Virus record (IMG/VR): IMGVR_UViG_2778261295_000004
DNA: 33,277 nucleotides
Strand: one strand, 5' to 3'
Source of the DNA: a virus
Taxonomy: Duplodnaviria > Heunggongvirae > Uroviricota > Caudoviricetes
Shown: positions 268 through 31,007 of the stretch, piece after piece
Layout: each line of letters starts with the position of its first letter
Position numbering within the stretch: the first letter of the stretch is position 1
The notes under the pieces: model-generated
What the model was told of the DNA's origin: nothing
Database searches by the model: none
What the model saw: the letters and a program-made list of their open reading frames with translations, nothing else
Program-made: the position numbers and the translations under genes

Positions 268-300
268 AAGCCCTCGCGTTGAGGGCTTTACTGATTTTTT
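268..300. terminator. Probable bidirectional intrinsic terminator between convergent grxA and ybjM
   Basis: Inverted repeat agccctc / gagggct with a 5-nt loop followed by a T-run (ctgatttttt); overlaps the ybjM stop codon. Confidence 0.5.
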
Positions 301-665
301 CTGTGCTGTGGTTTAAACAAACTACTGATAAATAAGAAACACAGTGCCCCCAGCGCACACCAGAACACCGCGCTTAGTAACCATGCCAGCTCTTGCCAGA
401 ATGAGCGCGTCGGTGAAAAAAACAGCCGCATAATGAGCATTGAACAGGGTGCCGCCAGCATTGCGCCAAATAGAGGTTTCAGGACTTCTCTACGCTGTGA
501 AAAGAAACTGGCAACTGCTCCAGGAAGAATGAAAAATAGCAAGCCGATTTCAGGATGCCCGGCAGCCCGAAAAGCGCCTTTCATGTGCGTCGCCAGAAAA
601 AGGCACACCACAATGAAGAGGACAAAACAGCAGATTGCCCCCGCCCAACGTTGTTTATGTTTCAC
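288..665 (-). CDS. ybjM: Inner membrane protein YbjM
   Basis: 125-aa strongly hydrophobic ORF, GTG start, in the conserved position between grxA and ybjL. Confidence 0.7.
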   Translation of the reverse strand: MKHKQRWAGAICCFVLFIVVCLFLATHMKGAFRAAGHPEIGLLFFILPGAVASFFSQRREVLKPLFGAMLAAPCSMLIMRLFFSPTRSFWQELAWLLSAVFWCALGALCFLFISSLFKPQHRKNQ

Positions 666-934: not shown

Positions 935-2620
935 GTGAATATAAACGTCGCCGAATTGTTAAATGGGAATTACATTCTGTTATTATTTGTGGTCCTCGCG
1001 CTTGGGCTATGTCTCGGAAAGTTACGACTTGGTTCGATCCAACTGGGTAATTCCATTGGCGTTTTAGTCGTATCGCTGTTATTAGGCCAACAACATTTCA
1101 GCATTAACACCGATGCGCTTAATCTTGGCTTTATGCTGTTTATTTTCTGCGTCGGGGTCGAAGCCGGACCGAACTTTTTTTCCATTTTTTTTCGCGATGG
1201 GAAAAATTACCTAATGTTAGCACTGGTGATGGTTGGCAGTGCGCTGGTGATCGCCTTAGGGTTAGGTAAGCTGTTTGGCTGGGATATTGGCCTGACGGCC
1301 GGTATGTTAGCAGGCTCTATGACGTCGACACCGGTTCTGGTCGGTGCTGGCGATACACTGCGTCATTTCGGCATGGAAAGCAGGCAGCTCTCACTGGCAC
1401 TGGATAATCTGAGCCTCGGGTATGCCTTAACCTATTTAATCGGTCTGGTGAGTTTGATTGTTGGTGCGCGTTACTTGCCGAAATTGCAGCATCAGGACTT
1501 ACAGACCAGCGCCCAGCAAATCGCCCGCGAACGTGGCCTGGACACTGATGCCAACCGTAAGGTTTATTTACCGGTGATCCGCGCCTATCGCGTCGGCCCG
1601 GAGCTGGTGGCCTGGACCGACGGCAAAAATCTGCGTGAACTGGGTATTTATCGACAAACCGGCTGCTACATTGAACGTATTCGACGTAACGGGATTCTGG
1701 CAAATCCAGACGGTGATGCCGTGCTACAAATGGGCGATGAAATAGCGTTGGTAGGCTATCCCGACGCCCATGCCCGACTCGATCCCAGCTTCCGTAACGG
1801 TAAAGAAGTTTTCGATCGTGACCTTCTCGACATGCGTATCGTCACTGAAGAAGTGGTCGTTAAAAACCATAACGCTGTAGGTAAACGTCTCGCACAACTG
1901 AAGTTGACCGATCACGGTTGCTTCCTTAACCGCGTCATTCGTAGCCAGATTGAGATGCCGATAGATGACAACGTCGTGCTTAACAAAGGTGACGTTTTAC
2001 AAGTCAGCGGTGATGCCCGTCGCGTAAAAACCATCGCCGATCGCATCGGCTTTATCTCGATTCACAGCCAGGTCACTGACCTGCTGGCATTTTGCGCCTT
2101 CTTTGTTATTGGGCTGATGATCGGGATGATCACCTTCCAGTTCAGCACATTCAGTTTCGGCATGGGGAACGCTGCCGGGTTGTTATTCGCCGGAATTATG
2201 CTGGGCTTTATGCGTGCTAACCACCCGACCTTCGGTTACATTCCGCAAGGTGCATTAAGCATGGTGAAAGAGTTCGGCTTGATGGTGTTTATGGCAGGCG
2301 TTGGTCTGAGCGCCGGTAGCGGTATTAATAACGGCCTGGGCGCGATTGGCGGTCAGATGTTGATTGCCGGATTAATTGTCAGTCTTGTGCCCGTGGTTAT
2401 CTGTTTCTTGTTCGGTGCTTATGTATTGCGAATGAACCGCGCACTGTTGTTCGGCGCAATGATGGGCGCACGCACCTGCGCGCCGGCAATGGAGATCATC
2501 AGTGATACAGCTCGCAGTAACATCCCTGCGCTGGGCTATGCGGGCACCTACGCAATCGCCAACGTCCTGCTGACGCTGGCAGGGACAATCATCGTCATGG
2601 TATGGCCAGGATTAGGATAA
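935..2620 (+). CDS. ybjL: Putative transporter YbjL (YidE/YbjL-type membrane transporter)
   Basis: 561-aa ORF (GTG start) with hydrophobic N- and C-terminal membrane halves around a soluble central segment; matches my recollection of E. coli YbjL. Confidence 0.85.
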
Positions 2621-20741: not shown

Positions 20742-22508
20742 ATGAACACCACACTGACACCCGCAGATCTCGATCCCCGTCGGCAGGCCATGCTGCTGTA
20801 CTTTCAGGGATACCGCGTAGCCCGCATTGCTGAAATGCTGGGCGAGAAAGTTGCAACCGTTCACAGCTGGAAAAAACGCGACAAGTGGAGTGACTATGGG
20901 CCGCTGGATCAGATGCAGCTCACCACCGCCGCACGCTACTGCCAGCTCATTATGAAGGAGCACAAAGAAGGGAAAGATTTCAAAGAGATTGACCTGCTGG
21001 CGCGCCAGTCGGAGCGCCATGCGCGGATCGGCAAGTTTAACAATGGCGGCAACGAAGCCGACTTAAACCCTAACGTCGCCAACCGCAACAAAGGCCCGCG
21101 CCGTCAGCCGGAAAAGAACGTTTTCACCGATGAACAGATTGAGAAGCTGGAAGAAATCTTCCATTCCTCCATGTTCAACTACCAGCGCCACTGGTGGGAA
21201 GCCGGAAAAACCAACCGCATCCGCAACCTGCTGAAGTCACGCCAGATCGGCGCGACCTTCTATTTTGCCCGTGAAGCCCTGATTGACGCCCTGCTAACCG
21301 GGCGTAACCAGATTTTCCTTTCCGCCAGCAAGGCACAGGCCCACGTCTTTAAGCAGTACATCATCGACTTCGCCAAAGAAGTGGAGGTGGAGCTGAAAGG
21401 CGATCCGATGGTGCTTCCTAACGGGGCCACGCTGTACTTCCTCGGCACCAATGCCCGCACGGCCCAGAGTTACCACGGCAACCTGTATCTGGATGAATAT
21501 TTCTGGATACCGAAATTCCAGGAGCTGCGCAAAGTGGCTTCCGGTATGGCTATTCACAAGAAATGGCGACAGACCTATTTTTCCACGCCATCCAGTCTGA
21601 CACACAGTGCTTATCCGTTCTGGTCCGGTGCGCTGTTCAACCGTGGGCGCAACAAAGCCGATAAGGTGGACATCGACCTGTCCCACAGCAATCTGGCCCC
21701 CGGCCTGCTGTGCGCAGACGGGCAATACCGCCAGATAGTCACCGTGGAAGATGCGGTGCGCGGCGGCTGTAACCTGTTCGACCTTGACCAGTTGCGCATG
21801 GAGTACAGCCCGGACGAATACCAGAACCTGCTGATGTGCGAGTTTGTGGACGATCTCGCGTCCGTGTTTCCGCTCAGCGAGCTGCAGGCGTGCATGGTTG
21901 ACAGTTGGGAAGTCTGGACCGACTTTCATGCTCTGGCCCTGCGCCCGTTTGGCTGGCGCGAAGTGTGGATCGGTTATGACCCGGCAAAAGGTACGCAGAA
22001 CGGCGACAGCGCCGGATGCGTGGTGGTGGCACCGCCAGCCGTGCCTGGCGGTAAGTTTCGCATTCTTGAGCGTCACCAGTGGCGCGGGATGGACTTCCGC
22101 GCCCAGGCTGACGCCATCAAAAAACTGACCGAACAGTACAACGTGACCTATATCGGCATCGACTCGACAGGTGTCGGTCACGGTGTTTATGAGAACGTGA
22201 AAGCGTTCTTTCCTGCCGTCCGGGAGTTTGTCTACAACCCCAACGTTAAAAACGCCCTGGTACTCAAGGCCTACGACATTATCAGCCACCGCCGTCTGGA
22301 GTTTGACGCCGGGCATACCGACATCGCGCAGTCATTTATGGCAATCCGTCGCGCCACCACCGCCAGTGGCAACCGCCCGACCTATGAAGCCAGCCGCAGT
22401 GAAGAAGCCAGCCATGCCGATCTAGCCTGGGCAACAATGCACGCACTGTTTAACGAACCGCTGCAGGGCGAGTCCGCCAATACCAGCAATATTGTGGAGA
22501 TTTTTTGA
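20742..22508 (+). CDS. P: Terminase ATPase (large) subunit P
   Basis: 588-aa ORF divergent from O; ATG start; its stop overlaps the Q start (TGATG). Confidence 0.9.
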   Translation: MNTTLTPADLDPRRQAMLLYFQGYRVARIAEMLGEKVATVHSWKKRDKWSDYGPLDQMQLTTAARYCQLIMKEHKEGKDFKEIDLLARQSERHARIGKFNNGGNEADLNPNVANRNKGPRRQPEKNVFTDEQIEKLEEIFHSSMFNYQRHWWEAGKTNRIRNLLKSRQIGATFYFAREALIDALLTGRNQIFLSASKAQAHVFKQYIIDFAKEVEVELKGDPMVLPNGATLYFLGTNARTAQSYHGNLYLDEYFWIPKFQELRKVASGMAIHKKWRQTYFSTPSSLTHSAYPFWSGALFNRGRNKADKVDIDLSHSNLAPGLLCADGQYRQIVTVEDAVRGGCNLFDLDQLRMEYSPDEYQNLLMCEFVDDLASVFPLSELQACMVDSWEVWTDFHALALRPFGWREVWIGYDPAKGTQNGDSAGCVVVAPPAVPGGKFRILERHQWRGMDFRAQADAIKKLTEQYNVTYIGIDSTGVGHGVYENVKAFFPAVREFVYNPNVKNALVLKAYDIISHRRLEFDAGHTDIAQSFMAIRRATTASGNRPTYEASRSEEASHADLAWATMHALFNEPLQGESANTSNIVEIF

Positions 22509-23542
22509 TGGGAAAGAGTAAGAAGAACCGCGCTGCGTCGACGAACCAGATCCAGCATAAAAGCCAAACTTCAGCCGAAGCATTCAGCTTTGGCGATCCC
22601 GTTCCTGTTCTGGACCGCCGTGAACTGCTGGACTATGTGGAATGCGTACAGATGGATCGCTGGTATGAGCCGCCTGTGAGTTTCGACGGACTGGCGCGAA
22701 CCTTCCGCGCCGCCGTGCATCACAGCTCACCGATTGCGGTGAAATGCAACATTCTGACCAGCACCTACATCCCTCACCCGCTGCTCAGCCAGCAGGCTTT
22801 TTCACGTTTTGTGCAGGACTATCTGGTATTTGGTAACGCCTACCTGGAGAAACGCACGAACCGCTTCGGTGAAGTTATCACCCTTGAACCTGCGCTGGCA
22901 AAATACACCCGACGCGGTTTAGACCTGGATACCTACTGGTTTGTGCAATACGGCATGACCACGCAGCCGTATCAGTTCACGAAAGGCTGCATCTTTCATC
23001 TGATAGAACCGGACATCAACCAGGAGATCTACGGCCTGCCCGGTTATCTTTCTGCCATTCCGTCGGCCCTGCTCAACGAGTCCGCCACGCTGTTCCGCCG
23101 TAAATATTACATCAATGGCAGTCATGCTGGCTTCATCATGTATATGACCGATGCCGCGCAGAACCAGGAGGATGTGAACAACCTCCGCAACGCAATGAAA
23201 AGCGCCAAAGGTCCGGGTAACTTCCGCAATCTGTTTATGTACTCGCCTAATGGTAAAAAAGACGGACTTCAGATTATCCCGTTGTCAGAAGTCGCAGCGA
23301 AGGATGAATTTCTGAACATCAAGAACGTCAGCCGTGATGACATGATGGCGGCGCACCGCGTACCGCCCCAGATGATGGGAATTTTGCCGAATAATGTTGG
23401 GGGTTTTGGGGATGTGGAGAAGGCCAGTCGCGTATTTGTACGTAATGAATTAACGCCCTTGCAAAAAAGGCTACAAGAGCTGAACGACTGGCTGGGCGAA
23501 GAAGTGATTAAATTTACGCCCTATATTCTTTCAGAAGAATAA
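22508..23542 (+). CDS. Q: Portal (capsid vertex) protein Q
   Basis: Start refined to the ATG overlapping the P stop; the table ORF starts one codon earlier at TTG (22505). Confidence 0.9.
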   Translation: MGKSKKNRAASTNQIQHKSQTSAEAFSFGDPVPVLDRRELLDYVECVQMDRWYEPPVSFDGLARTFRAAVHHSSPIAVKCNILTSTYIPHPLLSQQAFSRFVQDYLVFGNAYLEKRTNRFGEVITLEPALAKYTRRGLDLDTYWFVQYGMTTQPYQFTKGCIFHLIEPDINQEIYGLPGYLSAIPSALLNESATLFRRKYYINGSHAGFIMYMTDAAQNQEDVNNLRNAMKSAKGPGNFRNLFMYSPNGKKDGLQIIPLSEVAAKDEFLNIKNVSRDDMMAAHRVPPQMMGILPNNVGGFGDVEKASRVFVRNELTPLQKRLQELNDWLGEEVIKFTPYILSEE

Positions 23543-23550
23543 TTCCGAAC

Positions 23551-24249
23551 TTATTTGTTTCTTCTTTGTTCACGCCTTGTCTTGGCTTCGATAAGGCGTT
23601 GAGGTTCAGTGTAAAGCCGTTCTAAAAAAAGATAGGTAAAATCTTCAAGATCCTCAGCAGCAGCTTTATCCAAAATACCTTCATGCGCGCCATCATTTCC
23701 GTCATCTTTAACGCATTCAGCTAGTTCCCTTAAAGCTTCAGGCAATAGATGATTATCAAATAACCAATCCATTCTTAACCCTAGGCTTCTCCTTATTTTT
23801 TGCGCAGGCCCTTGCTCCCCATCAGGAAGAAGTCCTTTTGTTGCATAATCAAGGCAAAGCCTAAACATGGTTGCTGCTGCATTATAACAACCAATAGCCA
23901 AACATTTCGCCCCTTCCTCATATGCACTATTGATATGCTCAGGTAAGAACTCTGGCGGCTCCTCTACTGCTAAGTCTGCCGGTGATATAGGCCTAACAAC
24001 CTCTGCAACTTCCTTTAAGCCGAATATTCCACTTTCCCAATTATAGCCATCTAAAGTTTTATTTTTCGTTAAAGGTCTGCAAAGAAACATTGTCGTTTTA
24101 TGACACTCTCGGCAAACACAATAGACCTCGTATTCGTATGTTTTACCCCCGCCCAATGCATTGTAAACCCTAGTGCAATTCAGCCCATTAACATCAAACG
24201 CTATTTTTTGTGATCCACATCGTGGACAGTCATCCACTAACATAACCAT
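23551..24249 (-). CDS. Cargo protein: N-terminal zinc ribbon plus C-terminal DUF4145/HEPN-like domain (candidate abortive-infection or defence effector)
   Basis: 232-aa ORF with strong GGGAGGAG Shine-Dalgarno; Cys motifs CPRC and CVCREC near the N-terminus; C-terminal ...LRELAECVKDDGNDGAHEG... resembles the GN-x-x-AH core of DUF4145 as I recall it; AT-rich compared with flanking phage genes. Confidence 0.55.
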   Translation of the reverse strand: MVMLVDDCPRCGSQKIAFDVNGLNCTRVYNALGGGKTYEYEVYCVCRECHKTTMFLCRPLTKNKTLDGYNWESGIFGLKEVAEVVRPISPADLAVEEPPEFLPEHINSAYEEGAKCLAIGCYNAAATMFRLCLDYATKGLLPDGEQGPAQKIRRSLGLRMDWLFDNHLLPEALRELAECVKDDGNDGAHEGILDKAAAEDLEDFTYLFLERLYTEPQRLIEAKTRREQRRNK

Positions 24250-24359
24250 GTCAATTGCTCCTCCCTATGAAAAAAATGAGTTGAAAAATTGAATATTCAC
24301 GACTTAAAAAGCTAGCCTATTTAACACCATAATTTCATTAATTCAACCATGAGCGCGCG

Positions 24360-24378
24360 CTCGTATCCCCGCCACGCC
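24360..24378 (-). other. Candidate cos cohesive-end core
   Basis: Minus strand reads GGCGTGGCGGGGATACGAG, matching in its first 13 nt my recollection of the 19-nt P2/186 cohesive end (GGCG(A/T)GGCGGGGAAAGCA...); adjacent perfect palindrome GAGCGCGCGCTC at 24351-24362. Confidence 0.4.
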
Positions 24379-24427
24379 TGCCCGCTTTGTGTAGTGGTTT
24401 TCATGCAGGTGCCTGATCCACGCAAAA

Positions 24428-24450
24428 GCCCGCCAGTTCTGGCGGGCCTT
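24428..24450 (-). terminator. Intrinsic terminator downstream of the 372-aa cargo gene
   Basis: gcccgccag / ctggcgggc stem followed on the minus strand by TTTTG; lies about 65 bp past the stop of the 24514..25632 gene. Confidence 0.5.
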
Positions 24451-24513
24451 AGCAAAAACGATCCTCAAACGGTCATGCAAATTCAGGCAGCATAGGCATG
24501 CACTGTTGTTAGG

Positions 24514-25632
24514 TTAGTTCGTAATGCCAATTTCCTTCAAAACTTTAGCCATTTCCGTCTGACTTAACTTGTTCCTGAACAAAGGGAAATTTTTCATTTT
24601 TTCCGCTCGTTGCCCTTTTGAAATAGTAATCTTTCCTGATGCTGATAACTCAGAGTCAAAAAAATAACATATTGTTGAATTTGAATTCTCCATATTTGAC
24701 TTGATACAATTCCATATGCTTTCTTTTTTCATTTCACACATTCTAGGACCAAAAATGATCCCTTTAACAACATTAGCATCATGATGAAAAATATGTCCAA
24801 TATTTCGATTTACGCGTCTTTGAACATGCCGCTCACTCCCTATTCCTGCATTTGCCTCTGGAATAAACATTCGATATTCAGCTTCATATCTCCAAAATCT
24901 ATTTTTAGTTAAAAATAACTCTGCAACATTTGCGCTTGGGTCTAGAAGTGAAACCTCTTTAGCCTGATTACTATATTTTATTTGCTTAACTGGAAAATTA
25001 AATTTATCTGATGAAAATAAATTTTCTCTTAGCTTCATTCCAGGATGTGGCACGCCATTAATATTAAAATCCTGCGTTTCATAAATCACAACACAACCAC
25101 TAAAGCCTGCAGCATAATGCGCCCACATCATACGATCTAACGCATTAGCTGAAAATGACACACTGAATACTGCAGGAACTATTTTCCTATACAACCTTTC
25201 TTTGATACTGTTCTCGCAAAGTGAGACCAAAAATTGGCGTGGTTCAGGAATATTCCCATAAATAGCGGAATTAATCACATTGATAGGTAGTAAACCATCA
25301 TTTATGATCTTACGTATCTCATCAACGTGTGAGTCAAACAGGCTATCTAATGACTCAATGCTACTTTTTATTTTTTTTCCTCTAAAAATACGATTCAATC
25401 CCTTATGTATCTTCAAATTACTCAAATCTAATATGTGACTCAAATTTTCATAGGATTTATCGCAAGGAGAACGCAATAAAATATCCCATAATTTCAATTT
25501 ATTATCAAAACGATAATCTATATTGAGATCATTAGGATCATTCAATTGCGCAGGAGCGGAAAAATATAATTCATTATAACGAATAGCTTTCTCGAAGAAG
25601 AAGTCCGGACGGTAATACTTGAAAAGATACAT
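24514..25632 (-). CDS. Cargo protein with DUF2971-like N-terminus (candidate anti-phage or abortive-infection protein, function unknown)
   Basis: 372-aa ORF, ATG start; N-terminal LFKYYRPDFFFEKAIRYNELYFSAPAQLNDPND resembles the DUF2971 signature as I recall it; strongly AT-rich and Asn/Lys/Ile/Phe-rich unlike the phage backbone. Confidence 0.55.
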   Translation of the reverse strand: MYLFKYYRPDFFFEKAIRYNELYFSAPAQLNDPNDLNIDYRFDNKLKLWDILLRSPCDKSYENLSHILDLSNLKIHKGLNRIFRGKKIKSSIESLDSLFDSHVDEIRKIINDGLLPINVINSAIYGNIPEPRQFLVSLCENSIKERLYRKIVPAVFSVSFSANALDRMMWAHYAAGFSGCVVIYETQDFNINGVPHPGMKLRENLFSSDKFNFPVKQIKYSNQAKEVSLLDPSANVAELFLTKNRFWRYEAEYRMFIPEANAGIGSERHVQRRVNRNIGHIFHHDANVVKGIIFGPRMCEMKKESIWNCIKSNMENSNSTICYFFDSELSASGKITISKGQRAEKMKNFPLFRNKLSQTEMAKVLKEIGITN

Positions 25633-26137
25633 GACATTACCTATAACATTGCAATATTAACAACCGTATGAAAACGGTTTGATTGTATTGATAATATCCT
25701 ATTCTGCATATACCACAGTGTAAAGATTAATTTTAAATACCATATCCAACAGTAAATCATGTATCGACCGCCAGATAAGAAGCTTTTGAAAAACTTGGAC
25801 AATAATTAATCAAAAGGTAAGAGATACTCTTCAAATACATGACGTTGGCTTCCTCTTTCGTGATAACTATCAAGACCAAGTCCATTAGATAATGGACATC
25901 AAATATTCCAAGTCAATCCAAGAACAATCATCATAAGCTCTTCCCATCCTGTATCCTCTATCTCACTCTTTTGGACATTGAAAGAAGCCCCTCTGACCGG
26001 GAATGATTGTTTCCAGCGTTTGACCACGATATACAATATGATATTTGATGTCTTTTGATCAGATGGCTAACGCCTCGCACAGCTCGTTGTTCAACCTTGC
26101 TGACGCCAGAAGCAAGTTCAGACGCCAGCAACGTTTC

Positions 26138-26371
26138 TTAATGCAGCCAGCTGTCGTCTTCCCACACCTTCTGCATAATTTTCATCACTTGTTTTCTTTC
26201 TTCGTCCAGTTGCAGTCCGGTCAGTTCCACACCGTTAGAGCTACCTTTGCGGATACGAATTACCGTTTTGGGATACAGGGGGCGCAGATTGCGGTAAAGC
26301 TCGGATTCAAGGGCGTCCAGGGTAGACTGGCTAATTTTCTGCTCTTTATCGATCATTATTTCAATGCGCAT
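26138..26371 (-). CDS. DinI-like SOS-response protein
   Basis: Start refined to internal ATG (MRIEIMIDKEQ...) with GAGGTG upstream; N-terminal MRIE... and C-terminal acidic W-containing tail resemble E. coli DinI. Confidence 0.8.
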   Translation of the reverse strand: MRIEIMIDKEQKISQSTLDALESELYRNLRPLYPKTVIRIRKGSSNGVELTGLQLDEERKQVMKIMQKVWEDDSWLH

Positions 26372-26381
26372 AAAAGTCACC

Positions 26382-26570
26382 TCAGCTGATGACATCCATT
26401 GAGCGGTTGTATTCGTGGCTTCTGATTTTTGCCATGAGTTCATCAGTCAATTCAGAAACCCACTGCAGAGCCAGCCCCTTCTCTTCATCACTACACTCAC
26501 TAGCCGCTACAAGCTTAAGAAAAAAATCAATGCGCTGGAGCTTCAAAGACTCCAAAAAATAGTCCTGCAT
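26382..26570 (-). CDS. Small protein (62 aa), first gene of the LexA-box operon; possible Tum-like antirepressor
   Basis: Internal ATG preceded by a perfect AGGAGG; the upstream part of the table ORF (to 26672) contains the LexA box and so is unlikely to be coding. Confidence 0.5.
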   Translation of the reverse strand: MQDYFLESLKLQRIDFFLKLVAASECSDEEKGLALQWVSELTDELMAKIRSHEYNRSMDVIS

Positions 26571-26611
26571 TTTTCCTCCTATGACACCACAAGCAATACT
26601 GTACACATAAC

Positions 26612-26631
26612 CACTGTTTATATTTACAGTA
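26612..26631. promoter_or_regulatory. LexA box (SOS operator)
   Basis: cactgtttatatttacagta fits the CTGT-N8-ACAG consensus with an AT-rich spacer; lies about 40 bp upstream of the small ORF start. Confidence 0.65.
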
Positions 26632-26723
26632 TATAATAATCTTACTGATGTAAAACGTTTTTTTACGTTCATCAGCCTGATATGCCTGGTATTATTAAGA
26701 GCACGAATTGTTAACCCGCGTAA

Positions 26724-29102
26724 TTAATACAGATCCCGCCACTTATCATCTTCCTGCAAACGCTGGTTCCGATAGAAGATACGCAGGCCTGCTCCTGACG
26801 GAATACTGCCGCCGCGAAGGAGTAAATCGACCTCTTTCTCGCTGCCATCAAATCCTCTGGACTTCAGTTCATAGACGAGCTGCTGTCGTTGATGGTCTGT
26901 AATTCGCTGTTTGTAGTCTCTACGCCGTTTCGGTTTCACCAGGCGTAACCTTGCAGCCAGTTCCCGGCGTTCTTTTTTGTTCATACTGTGCAGGTAATCG
27001 TGCAACTCCTTGTCATCCATACGGGTGATATCCGTTCTGGTATCCCCATCAGCTGATTTGTCTTTCCCTTGTTGGTACAAATTTTCAGCAAGGGGACAGT
27101 TATTGCCACGAGTCCGAGTCCAAGGGGCGCAAGCGCCCTGGTCGGCTGCCGCCTCCTGAACATCAACGGCCTTACGAACCATTTTCCACTTCACGGCATG
27201 AGTGCAGATCTTGCCCTCTGCAATAGGTGACCAGATGCCATAAATACGAATGCCGTGATCGCCATAGGCGGTCGGCTCTTCGTTGATTTCATAAGCGGTT
27301 CTGATGAGGTGATATTTGCGGGGAACCAGTACGCCGCCCTGCTTCATGATGTAGGTGGCAAAACAACCAGCATCAGCAGCAGCCAGGATGGCATCAAGGC
27401 GCGGGTTATCCAGTACCGGCGCACCTGCTTTTTTGTCCCCCTGTTGCCTTGCCGCCTGACCAGCCAGCAATCGCAGTTCACGGTAAGCCTGACGCCCCGG
27501 AATGCCAAAGAAGCGGAATTGCTGAACACGATGCAGAGACGCCCAGGCATTAACGTATTCAGCATTATCACGCAGGGATTTCCCCGTTTCCTTGCTGATC
27601 TCGCCAGCCAGACCACGCCCGTCAATGTTCTTACTGATGTATTTCGCGATGTAGCTTGTTGGCGTACCTTTGCGCGGGTTAATCAACTCAGACTTAAAGC
27701 GCGGCCCAGTGTTATTGCCCAGTTCCTCGCGGTCTTCACGGATGGCAAACTTACGCAGTAATGCAGTGATGGCGCGGCGGTCTTTTTTGCGCATAAAACA
27801 CAACAGGTGCCAGTGAACTGTACCGTCATGATGCGGCTCAGCCACCCGCACGCCATACCACCGCAATCCGGCTTTGTGCATCGCCTTACGAAATGCAGCA
27901 AACATGCCGACCAGATAATCACTGCTTTGTCTTACCGTCGCATTTGTCCAAGTTGGGTTGGGCCTGCCATTATTTAGCGTGGAATGGAAACGTGACGGAC
28001 AGGTGATGGTGTAGAAAACGGCGCAGTCACCGCGCATTTCCGCGATAAGCTCCAGGCCTTTAACACAGGCCATCATCTCATTGCGGCGATGCGCAGGGTT
28101 GCTGCTGCTGGCGTTTACCACATCCTCCATGTCCAGCGTGTCGCCGTCTTCGTTCACCAGTTCATGAGAACGAAAAAACTCCAGCGACTTACGGCGCTGC
28201 TCACGTTTATGCATCACGGCTTCATAGCTGACATAGGGAGATGCTTTTTTGCTGACCAGGCAGACAGCACGCAACTGCTCTTCCCGCCATTCGCAACGCA
28301 TCTTCCATAATTTCCGGTACCACCAGTCAGCGCACAACATACGCGCCAGCGAACCCGGAATGAGTTCATAGGGCACGGGTTTACGGCGGTTTCTTTTCCG
28401 GCGGAGTTGCTCAAACGCAGGCGGGATGACATCCAGACGCAGGGTTTCCGCTGCCACCTTTTCCCATGTCTTGCGGATTTCTTCTGGCTTAACGTCATCG
28501 GTGACATACAAATCGCCACAAGCTGCATCAAGGCACATGCTCATATGCGCAGCTACCAGGGTGGACAGGCGTTTCACCTGATCCTGACTCATTTCAGGCA
28601 GGATCAGCAGGCCGTCCAGCCCTTCATGGCTTGCCATAAAGCGAAAAGAAGTGGATAGCTGACAGTCGCGTACATGCTCCAGCCGTTCCAGACATGGCTT
28701 AATCGTCTCACGCAAATAGCGGGAATAAGCCTTTGGCCTGCCCAGGCTGCTGAAGTATTCAATACGTTGCATCAGTGGCTTGCTGATATGGGAAGGCTGG
28801 GCATTAACGTCCGCCAGAATGACCATATCTGGATTAAAACGCTGCTGCTCATGCGCCAGCTTTGCCCGACTAATGAGCTTATCCTGCTCCATTTCGCGCT
28901 GGACAGGATCACGGGATTCATTAAAGAAATAACGCTCCCAGACCTGATCACTCAGTGCCTCGCGGCGCAGCTGTTCCTGCTCGTTATCGGCAGCGTACAG
29001 AGCGATCAGGTTTGAAAGCGCAGAAACTGAAGATTGCTCTTCCGTCTCTACGTAAGGATTGATTGCTTTTTTCTCAGCATTCCAGGAATAGCTGTAGTTC
29101 AT
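26724..29102 (-). CDS. A: Replication initiation protein A (rolling-circle endonuclease)
   Basis: Large ORF containing ...[18 protein letters not shown]... and ...[12 protein letters not shown]... motifs typical of P2 gpA-family initiators. Start placed at ATG 29102 (GGAGA upstream, TAATG overlap with the upstream gene); table ORF extends to 29153. Confidence 0.9.
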
Positions 29103-29932
29103 TACGCAATCTCCAGTTCGAGCTGTGAAGGCTGCAAACCATTCGACAGCCAATCAGAAACTGAAGGTGGGCGAACAGCTTCAATTGCACCTTTTAAAAT
29201 TGCGCAACGGTTTTTCAGAATGACAGCTTTCAGCTCCTTTTCCGTCAGATTGCGCGAATACTCAGCCTCCTGAATAGCCCGCGTCAGCTCAGGATATTTG
29301 CTATTAAATTTGGGGACATTGCAGGCAAGATTTGTACTGTCGGCAGTCGCCAGTGGGTAATTTCCCAACACACGACCGTCAAGCATGCGCAAACCATGAA
29401 CAGCTGTTTTGAAATTGTGTCGGCAATAAATTGCTTCAAAAGCGTCCTGCATACGACGATGCCAGTGCGCAGTTCTGATAGCCGCATATTCACCAGACGA
29501 TCCAAAGCAGACACGAGGCCATTCACGACATAGCTCGATAAGCCGATCGATTGACTCGTGCAGATGCCAGACGGGAGTTGCCTTCCCGTAGAACATTTTC
29601 GGAACTTCGTTTATCAGGGCATCATTGTCACGTTCACCTCCGTCCACAACATCAGGAATGACAAAAAAAGCGACCTTAGGATGGTGGTAATAGTTCAGGA
29701 GCCATTTATAAAAATCACTCCAGTTAATTTTTAGCCCACGCACCCATGCAGAAAATGCGCCGTTATCAATGCCGACGACCTGAGCGTGCTGAATGGACGC
29801 CGCAATCTGATCTGGTCGTACATAGGAGACGAAAGCGCCAGCTCCGCTCACCGCAATACGATGAACGTCGCCAGCACTTCCCCAGACAGGCGTCCCATGG
29901 AAATGATGAATTCCGTGGTGCATTTCTTTCAC
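29102..29932 (-). CDS. Hypothetical protein between dam and A
   Basis: 276-aa ORF, GTG start overlapping the dam stop (alternative ATG at 29923); translationally coupled on both sides. Confidence 0.5.
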
Positions 29933-30783
29933 ACTTGCACCCCGAAAATAACAGTAGAGTCACGTCCCCTACTAAAATCGGCACTAAACCAATTAGCAGA
30001 TTTAGTGGCAATCATCTCTGTTGCAAATTTTCCCTCCCCCGCTGCAACGCCGATGCTGCGTTTCGCCCTGATGTAGTGGTGAGTGAAATTACGATAAAGG
30101 GACCGGGTCAAAGACGTGTTACTGTTAGAAACAATGACCGGATGTCCTTCTGATGACCGATGTTCAAGAATGGATGCCAGGTGATACTGATCATCTTCAG
30201 TGAAACCATCAGTGTGATAGCCGGAAAACGTACCGTCATAAGGCGGATCGCAATACACCACATCCCCCACCTTCAACATCGCCAGCGTTTCATCAAAGCT
30301 GGCGCAGATAAACGTTGCCCGCTGGGCTTTCTCTGCAAATGCGCGAATTTCTTTTTCAGGGAAATACGGATTTTTATAATTACCGTAGGGAATGTTGAAA
30401 TGCCCGCTCTTGTTATAGCGACATAAACCACGGTAACCGTGACGATTGAGATACAGGAAATATACCGCTTTCATGAAATCAGTAATTTCAGTGGAGTAAT
30501 TAAACTCCTGCCTTATGTTGTAATAAGCCACCTCCCTGTTTGCTTCCTCAAATAAAGCTCTGGCACGAGATATAAACGCCTCACAATCAGCAGCAACCTT
30601 TTTATAGAGGTTGATTAAATCAGGATTAATATCCGCAACAAGATAGCTGGGGTAATCCGTCTCCATCATCACTGCACAGGAACCCGCGAAAGGTTCAACC
30701 AGTCGCGGGCCAGCAGGAAGATGCTTTTTCAGTTCGGACATTATGGCGGTTTTATTTCCTGCCCATTTCAGGATGGTGCTCAT
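29929..30783 (-). CDS. dam: DNA adenine methyltransferase (Dam family)
   Basis: Start refined to ATG ([11 protein letters not shown]...) with GGAGGTG upstream; contains the ILKWAGNK and DPPY motifs of Dam-type N6-adenine methyltransferases. Confidence 0.85.
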
Positions 30784-31007
30784 ACAGCACCTCCGTTGTA
30801 ATGTTTGCCTTTCAGCTCTGCGATTTCCTGACAGGTAATGCAAAGCTGCACACCCGGAATGGCACGGCGGCGTGCTGGCGGAATTGGCGCTTCACACTCA
30901 ACGCAAAGCACGCGGGACACGCCCGGCGTTTTGGCACGGGCAGCACGGATATGGCGTTGGCGTTCTTCTTCAACGCGCTGCTGTACGAGATCCATTGCAT
31001 CAGCCAT
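30780..31007 (-). CDS. TraR/DksA-family C4 zinc-finger protein
   Basis: 75-aa ORF with CVEC ... CITC spacing; ATGA overlap with dam. Confidence 0.75.
   Translation of the reverse strand: MADAMDLVQQRVEEERQRHIRAARAKTPGVSRVLCVECEAPIPPARRRAIPGVQLCITCQEIAELKGKHYNGGAV

Follow-up and report, generated by a model that had tools for sequence, protein, structure and literature searches.

What is carried by a P2-like prophage at the place where phage P2 itself keeps its exclusion genes tin and old? We address this question for IMG/VR virus record IMGVR_UViG_2778261295_000004, a stretch of 33,277 nucleotides (hereafter the window, meaning all of the DNA that was analysed) that is essentially one P2-like prophage and that encodes, on the minus strand at 24514..25632, a protein of 372 residues in the DUF2971 family. 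Our preferred explanation, with a probability of roughly 0.6, is that this gene of the DUF2971 (Aristaios / PDC-S31) family acts by itself as an anti-phage module for abortive infection and sits in the tin/old slot as a self-contained expression cassette. We favor a role in defence because of the family match of the protein, the conservation of residues resembling an active site, the selection acting on the gene, its own promoter, its location in a defence hotspot and the precedent of Aristaios, a DUF2971 protein encoded by a Lactococcus plasmid.

A functional gene in a small clade of the DUF2971 family

The open reading frame (ORF) runs from ATG to TAA with the N-terminal sequence quoted in a preliminary description of this DNA, and a stop-free run of 372 codons would be expected by chance with a probability of only ~2e-14 at the local GC content of 33.5% (29% at third codon positions), so that the gene reported there is real. 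Pairwise comparison with four homologues of 63-81% identity gave ratios of nonsynonymous to synonymous substitution rates (dN/dS) of 0.07-0.19, and the gene is therefore functional and under purifying selection. Exactly the same 372-residue protein is encoded on 425 public contigs, where it is automatically named "DUF2971 domain-containing protein [Enterobacteriaceae]", and RefSeq labels identical proteins "DUF2971 domain-containing protein". The cassette is found in 27 of 5,426 complete E. coli genomes, each time in one copy on the chromosome that is annotated as an intact coding sequence, whereas tblastn found just one weak match among 50,697 deposited phage genomes; the gene is thus known from prophages and not from sequenced isolated phages. 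Its product is rich in isoleucine, asparagine and lysine (8.9, 8.6 and 8.1%, respectively), as had been pointed out before, and basic (pI 9.2), which is compatible with nucleic-acid binding without being decisive.

The preliminary description had called the protein DUF2971-like, and profile searches agree: Pfam DUF2971 (PF11185) matches the window protein marginally, with 22.4 bits against a gathering score of 22.0 over residues 169-255, and matches all of the 43 aligned homologues (best E 1e-8). The PADLOC model PDLC04990 for PDC-S31 covers residues 3-312 (E 3.1e-23), three more PDC-S31 models match as well, and phrog_1762 of the PHROGs collection is matched with E 5e-29. Pfam and PADLOC searches of the 372-residue protein found nothing beyond DUF2971 and PDC-S31, and a search of NCBIfam gave no match. 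Judged by these profiles, the protein is a member of the DUF2971 family. A profile of the clade retrieved 7,032 clusters (at 50% identity) at E <= 1e-3 and only 22 at E <= 1e-30; by sequence similarity, the window protein belongs to a small clade of ~370-residue proteins within a very large family. Distant family members can be aligned only up to approximately residue 315, and the C-terminal part of the protein (residues 297-372) is therefore specific to the clade.

Conservation is concentrated in a few motifs. Invariant in the 43 homologues are K5, R8, Y19, E21, Y23, F24 and the stretch L30-N31-D32-P33-x-D35 near the N-terminus as well as the core motifs MW[AS]HYA..G and W.YE.E.R, which are present here as M169-W-A-H-Y173-A and W247-R-Y-E250-A-E252-Y-R254. 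Across 129 divergent sequences sharing 15-43% identity, Y173, G179, Y220, K243, E250, E252, R254 and G295 are invariant while E21, F24, N31, D32, W170, W247 and G291 are conserved in at least 90%, and the window protein retains every residue of both sets. The invariants agree with the published description of DUF2971 as a family with a strictly conserved tyrosine plus an ExE motif (PMC12522546). DUF2971 proteins of Klebsiella and Vibrio plasmids and divergent representatives share [FY]-[KR]-[YF]...(F/L)NDP, an S-F-S strand followed by MW[AS]HYA, and W.YE.E.R. The N-terminal signature by which the protein had first been recognised is a genuine family-wide motif, but it lies outside the Pfam model.

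A 712-residue protein encoded on Vibrio harveyi plasmid pVH2 (locus L009, 902-3040) combines a long helical N-terminal region, which looks tetratricopeptide repeat-like by eye, with a C-terminal DUF2971 domain. This fusion suggests that in some members of the family a sensor or regulatory module is covalently joined to the domain.

A predicted ADP-ribosyltransferase-like fold with an active-site-like centre

Structure modelling and a fold search had been recommended in the preliminary description, which could assign no motif to the protein beyond its N-terminus. An AlphaFold2 model built from the 43-sequence alignment is confident (mean predicted local distance difference test score, pLDDT, of 93; predicted template modelling score, pTM, of 0.86) and shows an ADP-ribosyltransferase-like fold that appears closest to the nucleic-acid-modifying enzymes DarT and Tpt1; with this predicted fold, nearest to DarT, and the invariant tyrosine and ExE, the view of a protein without assignable features no longer holds. 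The model consists of a predicted ADP-ribosyltransferase-like core (residues ~1-41 and 151-296), a helical insert of ~110 residues (residues ~42-150) and the clade-specific C-terminal domain, which is predicted to be alpha/beta (residues ~297-372). Foldseek comparison of the model with PDB and with BFVD gave no match at E <= 0.001, and searches of PDB sequences with hidden Markov models (HMMs) of the clade and of the broad family returned chance matches only, among them no ADP-ribosyltransferase. Predictions of an ADP-ribosyltransferase for DUF2971 have already been published (PMC12522546, PMC11381338).

ADP-ribosyltransferases have an H-Y-E or R-S-E catalytic triad on strands beta1, beta2 and beta5 that surrounds an NAD+ pocket. 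Candidates for such a triad are ordered as expected on the predicted strands, with K5 on strand 2-7, S159-F-S161 on strand 155-161, Y173 on the helix that follows this strand, and E250-x-E252 at the start of strand 252-258. On the model, the conserved residues would therefore seem to fall at the expected ADP-ribosyltransferase motifs I-III. The conserved ExE, a Lys/Arg on strand 1 and the S-x-S strand also resemble the R-S-E class of ADP-ribosyltransferases, which usually modify protein arginine, and a protein target such as RNA polymerase is possible.

Two alternatives bear directly on this centre. The first sees in the protein a catalytically dead binder with the same fold that acts as a decoy, as a DNA- or RNA-binding blocker or as a superinfection-exclusion factor. 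The lysine at motif I, which replaces histidine or arginine and is variable across the family, would be in line with this idea, and so would the lack of a sequence-level match to any solved ADP-ribosyltransferase. We nevertheless regard a dead binder as quite improbable, given that strict invariance of Y173, K243, E250, E252 and R254 at 15-43% identity is typical of a catalytic centre and that DarT likewise has a non-canonical active site (PMC9967889). The second alternative keeps both the fold and the defence role and places the effect in depletion of nicotinamide adenine dinucleotide (NAD+) by a glycohydrolase or phosphorylase, with death or arrest of the cell as for SIR2, TIR or RES-domain effectors. 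This appears unlikely to us: the best structural matches of the model are, as far as the prediction goes, true transferases acting on nucleic acids, the invariant ExE together with conserved K243, W247 and R254 would suit substrate recognition better than plain hydrolysis, and Aristaios is reported to block transcription specifically.

A cassette with its own conserved promoter

The extent of the acquired DNA can be read from phage vB_EcoM-813R9, which lacks the DUF2971 gene. Its blastn matches to window positions 24353-24504 and 26066-27000 lie ~5 bp apart, and the cargo cassette therefore comprises 24505..26065 on the minus strand (1,561 bp). Its GC content is 34% against 55% for the prophage backbone, and the horizontal acquisition that had been suggested from composition is supported.

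A promoter scan combined with an alignment of seven loci, drawn from P2-like phages, integrative and conjugative elements (ICEs) and satellite-like contexts, located a sigma-70-type promoter at 25696..25724 on the minus strand (TTTACA, 17 nt spacer, TAGGAT). The -35 hexamer TTTACA and the spacing are identical in 7/7 loci, the -10 hexamer is closely conserved (TAGGAT, TAAGAT, TAAAAT or TAATAT), and the promoter is kept even in ICE and satellite-like loci where nothing else upstream is conserved. The cassette thus carries its own promoter. Translation would start from the gene's own ATG with a weak Shine-Dalgarno sequence, as described earlier; it reads AGGT, lies 6 nt 5' of the start codon (25639..25642, minus strand) and is kept as [AG]GGT[AG]A in 6/7 aligned loci. 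The transcript would end at an intrinsic-terminator-like hairpin (GCCCGCC-agaact-GGCGGGC-TTTTG; 24423..24447, minus strand), which had been taken for a terminator of the gene's own. The GC-rich hairpin followed by TTTTG is indeed present, but it belongs to the conserved cos-proximal backbone of the phage (24353-24504) and not to the cassette, because P2-like phages without the DUF2971 gene have this stretch as well.

The 5' leader between promoter and Shine-Dalgarno sequence contains a perfect 6-bp inverted repeat (AACCGT-tttcat-ACGGTT; 25662-25679, minus strand) that is partly conserved in a related P2-like locus (L002). Its conservation does not extend to loci farther away in sequence, and it may serve as an operator or form a hairpin in the leader. 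A predicted fold of the 5' untranslated region that would sequester the Shine-Dalgarno sequence (z -2.4) was discounted, as one of its arms extends into the -10 element and would probably be missing from the transcript.

Two cargo slots around cos in a defence hotspot

The interval between gpA and gpQ is an experimentally validated defence hotspot in which P2 keeps tin and old (PMC9122126). In the window it is bounded by genes for the gpA replication endonuclease (26724..29153, minus strand) and the portal protein gpQ (22505..23542, plus strand), and the minus-strand order of genes is DUF4145, DUF2971, DinI-like (26138..26443), a small conserved ORF, gpA, a Dam-type methylase and CII. The cassette hence sits between DinI/gpA and cos, in the slot of tin and old in P2, just where the preliminary description had put it.

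The cos site itself (~24348-24406) was located with the help of the isolated phage Cartapus, whose linear genome ends at window position 24406 and whose 59-bp segment annotated as "putative cos site" maps here. The cos region contains CTCGTATCCCCGCCACGCC, which we take to resemble the P2/186 cohesive end, and it is adjoined by a conserved stretch of ~100 bp with the terminator hairpin in the middle of the gpA-gpQ hotspot. The DUF2971 gene and the DUF4145 gene (23551..24249, minus strand, 232 residues) are separated by cos, and because cos falls between them the hotspot is made up of two cargo slots flanking cos, the contents of which vary independently. In virion DNA, the DUF2971 gene is the last gene at the right end, i.e., in the old/tin slot proper, and the left end opens with the DUF4145 gene. 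Sibling E. coli P2-like prophages (L023-L026) carry SIR2 with an ATP-binding protein, a KAP-family nucleoside triphosphatase with IS903B, or uncharacterised proteins of 289 and 176 residues in the DinI-to-cos slot, and a 304-residue protein paired with HIRAN in the cos-to-portal slot. Table S5A of Rousset et al. 2022 (PMC9122126) also lists DarT + Macro in the DinI-to-cos slot.

Beyond these P2-like hotspots, where at least 4 different neighbours were seen, homologues of the DUF2971 gene occur in ICEs, in an AlpA/primase satellite-like island, in lambdoid prophages and in a Pseudomonas chromosome. Those in lambdoid prophages adjoin EMARD_N, GIY-YIG or HNH genes or follow the O/P replication genes.

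This distribution is relevant to the idea that the gene serves lysogenic conversion or modifies the host outside of any defence, be it as a secreted effector or virulence factor or as an ADP-ribosyltransferase for host take-over like T4 Alt/Mod. P2 hotspots do house cargo unrelated to defence, for example partition systems and cytolethal distending toxin (PMC9122126), and ~18% of DUF2971 proteins are predicted secreted effectors (PMC12522546). We still think such a role rather improbable for the window gene. No secretion-system gene is conserved beside it in the loci surveyed, its close homologues occupy cargo slots of prophages, ICEs and satellites beside HNH, GIY-YIG, AIPR, EMARD_N and similar genes, and its promoter accompanies it outside phages, so that there is no tie to the P2 lytic programme.

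No conserved partner gene

Across ~15 homologous loci (P2-like, lambdoid, ICE and chromosomal) we found no conserved partner gene, and only the promoter travels along with the DUF2971 gene. Neither a macrodomain gene (DarG) nor a NADAR gene is present in the window or in these loci. The DUF4145 gene was considered as a functional partner and rejected, since it lies across cos in a slot that varies independently: In E. coli ARL09/232, a 100%-identical DUF2971 gene occurs together with an AIPR gene, a 97%-identical one is paired with an unrelated 380-residue gene and genes of 69-71% identity with a 306-residue + HIRAN pair, and the combination of DUF2971 with DUF4145 occurs in 1/5,426 complete E. 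coli genomes, at 82% identity.

An 86-residue ORF upstream of the gene was rejected as a candidate antitoxin because it is a decaying phage gene. Its remnant lies 5' of the promoter (25808..26064, minus strand; tblastn with the intact ORF of L002) and is assigned to phrog_2100 (E 6e-40). It is interrupted by an in-frame stop in the window, intact in the related P2-like loci L002 and L016, and frameshifted, truncated or partly deleted in L013, L017, L018 and L020.

These observations make it highly improbable that the DUF2971 protein is the toxin of a toxin-antitoxin pair whose antitoxin would be the phrog_2100 product, an RNA from the 430-bp upstream region or the DUF4145 protein. The small ORF has decayed here and in four other loci while the DUF2971 gene stayed intact, those of the ICE, satellite-like and Pseudomonas loci that were tested lack it, and outside P2-like loci upstream conservation is limited to the promoter region; as to DUF4145, it is swapped for unrelated genes beside DUF2971 genes of 69-100% identity, and the neighbourhood contains no macrodomain or NADAR gene. 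What speaks for such a pair is that DarT, apparently the nearest relative by structure, is restrained by DarG and that the 86-residue ORF does lie upstream in some P2-like loci.

Proposed function

The abortive-infection module that we propose would work as follows: The protein would be made in the lysogen in an auto-inhibited state, with the helical insert and/or the clade-specific C-terminal domain serving as lid or sensor. An infecting phage would lift this inhibition, and NAD+-dependent ADP-ribosylation of a nucleic acid or of a component of the gene-expression machinery would then block the gene expression of the phage (and of the host), so that the infection is aborted as reported for Aristaios.

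Several points weigh against this proposal. The likeness to Aristaios is drawn from its published description, and it is for Aristaios, outside the enterobacterial clade, that a phenotype is known. That K5, Y173 and E250/E252 line an NAD+ pocket is inferred from the order of predicted strands, and the motif-I position is occupied by lysine and not by the canonical histidine or arginine. Finally, a toxin that is always expressed and has no antitoxin would require auto-inhibition, which is itself a supposition.

A more specific version, which we put forward only tentatively, is that the protein may be a stand-alone, antitoxin-free relative of DarT that ADP-ribosylates phage DNA or mRNA via a non-canonical Lys/Tyr/ExE centre, is silenced by its own helical insert or clade-specific C-terminal domain and responds directly to a phage component that activates it. 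If true, an ADP-ribosyltransferase toxin that targets DNA or RNA would here be regulated in a new way, in the genetically tractable setting of E. coli and P2.

Other features of the prophage

At the left of the window lie the host gene ybjM (288-665, minus strand) and a host gene for a YbjL-type permease with Asp-Al_Ex/TrkA_C domains (935-2620, plus strand). Because these host genes precede the prophage, its left junction is near 2.7-3.1 kb. tRNA genes were found nowhere in the window. The host genes are followed by tail and baseplate genes, including those for gpD, the tail fibre and tail-fibre assembly, and the terminase gene gpP (20742..22508, plus strand) directly precedes the portal gene.

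The protein of the cos-to-portal slot matches Pfam DUF4145 (E 4e-7), PADLOC PD-T7-4 (E 1.4e-6) and phrog_1305 (E 1e-52, labelled "DNA binding protein"), and its N-terminus has a zinc-ribbon-like CxxC...CxxC motif. The end of the portal gene, the DUF4145 gene and cos are 98.9% identical in phage Cartapus, where the DUF4145 gene is the first after cos. This gene is probably a second defence cargo that is independent of the cassette.

Between gpA and the Dam-type methylase, an ORF of 276 codons (29102-29932, minus strand) matches phrog_887 (E 2e-96), a moron labelled queuine tRNA-ribosyltransferase, over only the first ~60% of the profile, and has no match in Pfam or PADLOC. It is absent from the same position in one related locus (L001) and replaced by a PAPS_reduct gene in another (L013), and it may be Tgt/DpdA-like DNA-modification cargo in a third variable slot. 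The product of the adjacent gene (29929-30843, minus strand) is an orphan N6-adenine DNA methyltransferase of the D12 class (Dam-like), with E 2e-76 in Pfam and E 6e-110 for PADLOC oMTase. Such anti-restriction or self-methylation genes are typical of P2-like phages.

Significance and relation to known systems

DUF2971 as a candidate defence family, the hotspot and the arrangement of genes in it, which was catalogued in 2022, are already known. What we add is the prediction that this clade has an ADP-ribosyltransferase/DarT-like fold, a conserved promoter private to the cassette, the exact cassette boundaries and the two-slot structure around cos. Current concepts are left unchanged, and a known candidate defence family is extended to a known hotspot; the importance of the finding would rise if the enzyme were to ADP-ribosylate nucleic acids without any antitoxin and to restrain itself in a new manner. 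The family is very large, with at least 7,000 clusters at 50% identity matching the clade profile, and Aristaios is its only tested member. Promoter and ORF together take up ~1.2 kb in a well-understood E. coli P2-like prophage and would be a convenient model for asking how an antitoxin-free ADP-ribosyltransferase-like toxin is silenced, which target it modifies and which phages trigger it.

The exclusion genes tin and old, which P2 expresses as a prophage, occupy the same slot as the window gene, with gpA/DinI-like orf91 on one side and the right-hand cos end on the other. The likeness is one of position only; there is no homology, and the window protein has nothing like the ATPase or TOPRIM domain of Old. 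For E. coli P2 hotspots, Rousset et al. list "hypothetical + DinI + DUF2971 + DUF4145" as a Pfam string (Rousset et al. 2022, Table S5A, PMC9122126), an arrangement identical to that of the window in both gene order and hotspot, and the systems that they cloned, as tabulated in their supplement, do not include DUF2971.

The direct HMM match to PDC-S31 of PADLOC (PADLOC-DB v2) links the gene to a computational candidate for a single-gene defence family. We take this candidate family to have been defined by its association with defence islands, and the literature that we searched contains no mention of it.

By predicted structure, the nearest known protein appears to be DarT. At the level of sequence, none of the 43 clade members matches the Pfam DarT model (DUF4433) even at E <= 10, and PADLOC DarT models give no match either; with neither a DarT sequence match nor a DarG/NADAR partner, the window gene is not a member of DarTG. 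The conserved residues differ as well (K5 / Y173 / E250-x-E252 in the window protein versus H13 / R51 / Y71 / E160 in Thermus DarT; PMC9967889), and, compared with DarT, the window protein would have an additional large helical insert and an extra C-terminal domain.

Aristaios from Lactococcus plasmid pUCCL641_199 (PMC11381338) differs in its Gram-positive host and plasmid location from the window gene in its enterobacterial P2-like prophage, and with 316 residues it is shorter than the window protein with 372, whose extra C-terminal domain is common to only ~22 clusters at 50% identity. Both are single, antitoxin-free genes on mobile elements that encode a DUF2971 protein with a predicted ADP-ribosyltransferase fold. 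Aristaios confers phage resistance of the abortive-infection type in which phage transcription and protein production are blocked (Grafakou et al. 2024, PMC11381338). Infected cells contain no detectable phage structural proteins, and resistance was all-or-none over the tested phages, hence no escape mutants were selected (PMC11381338). By function and family, Aristaios is the closest known system.

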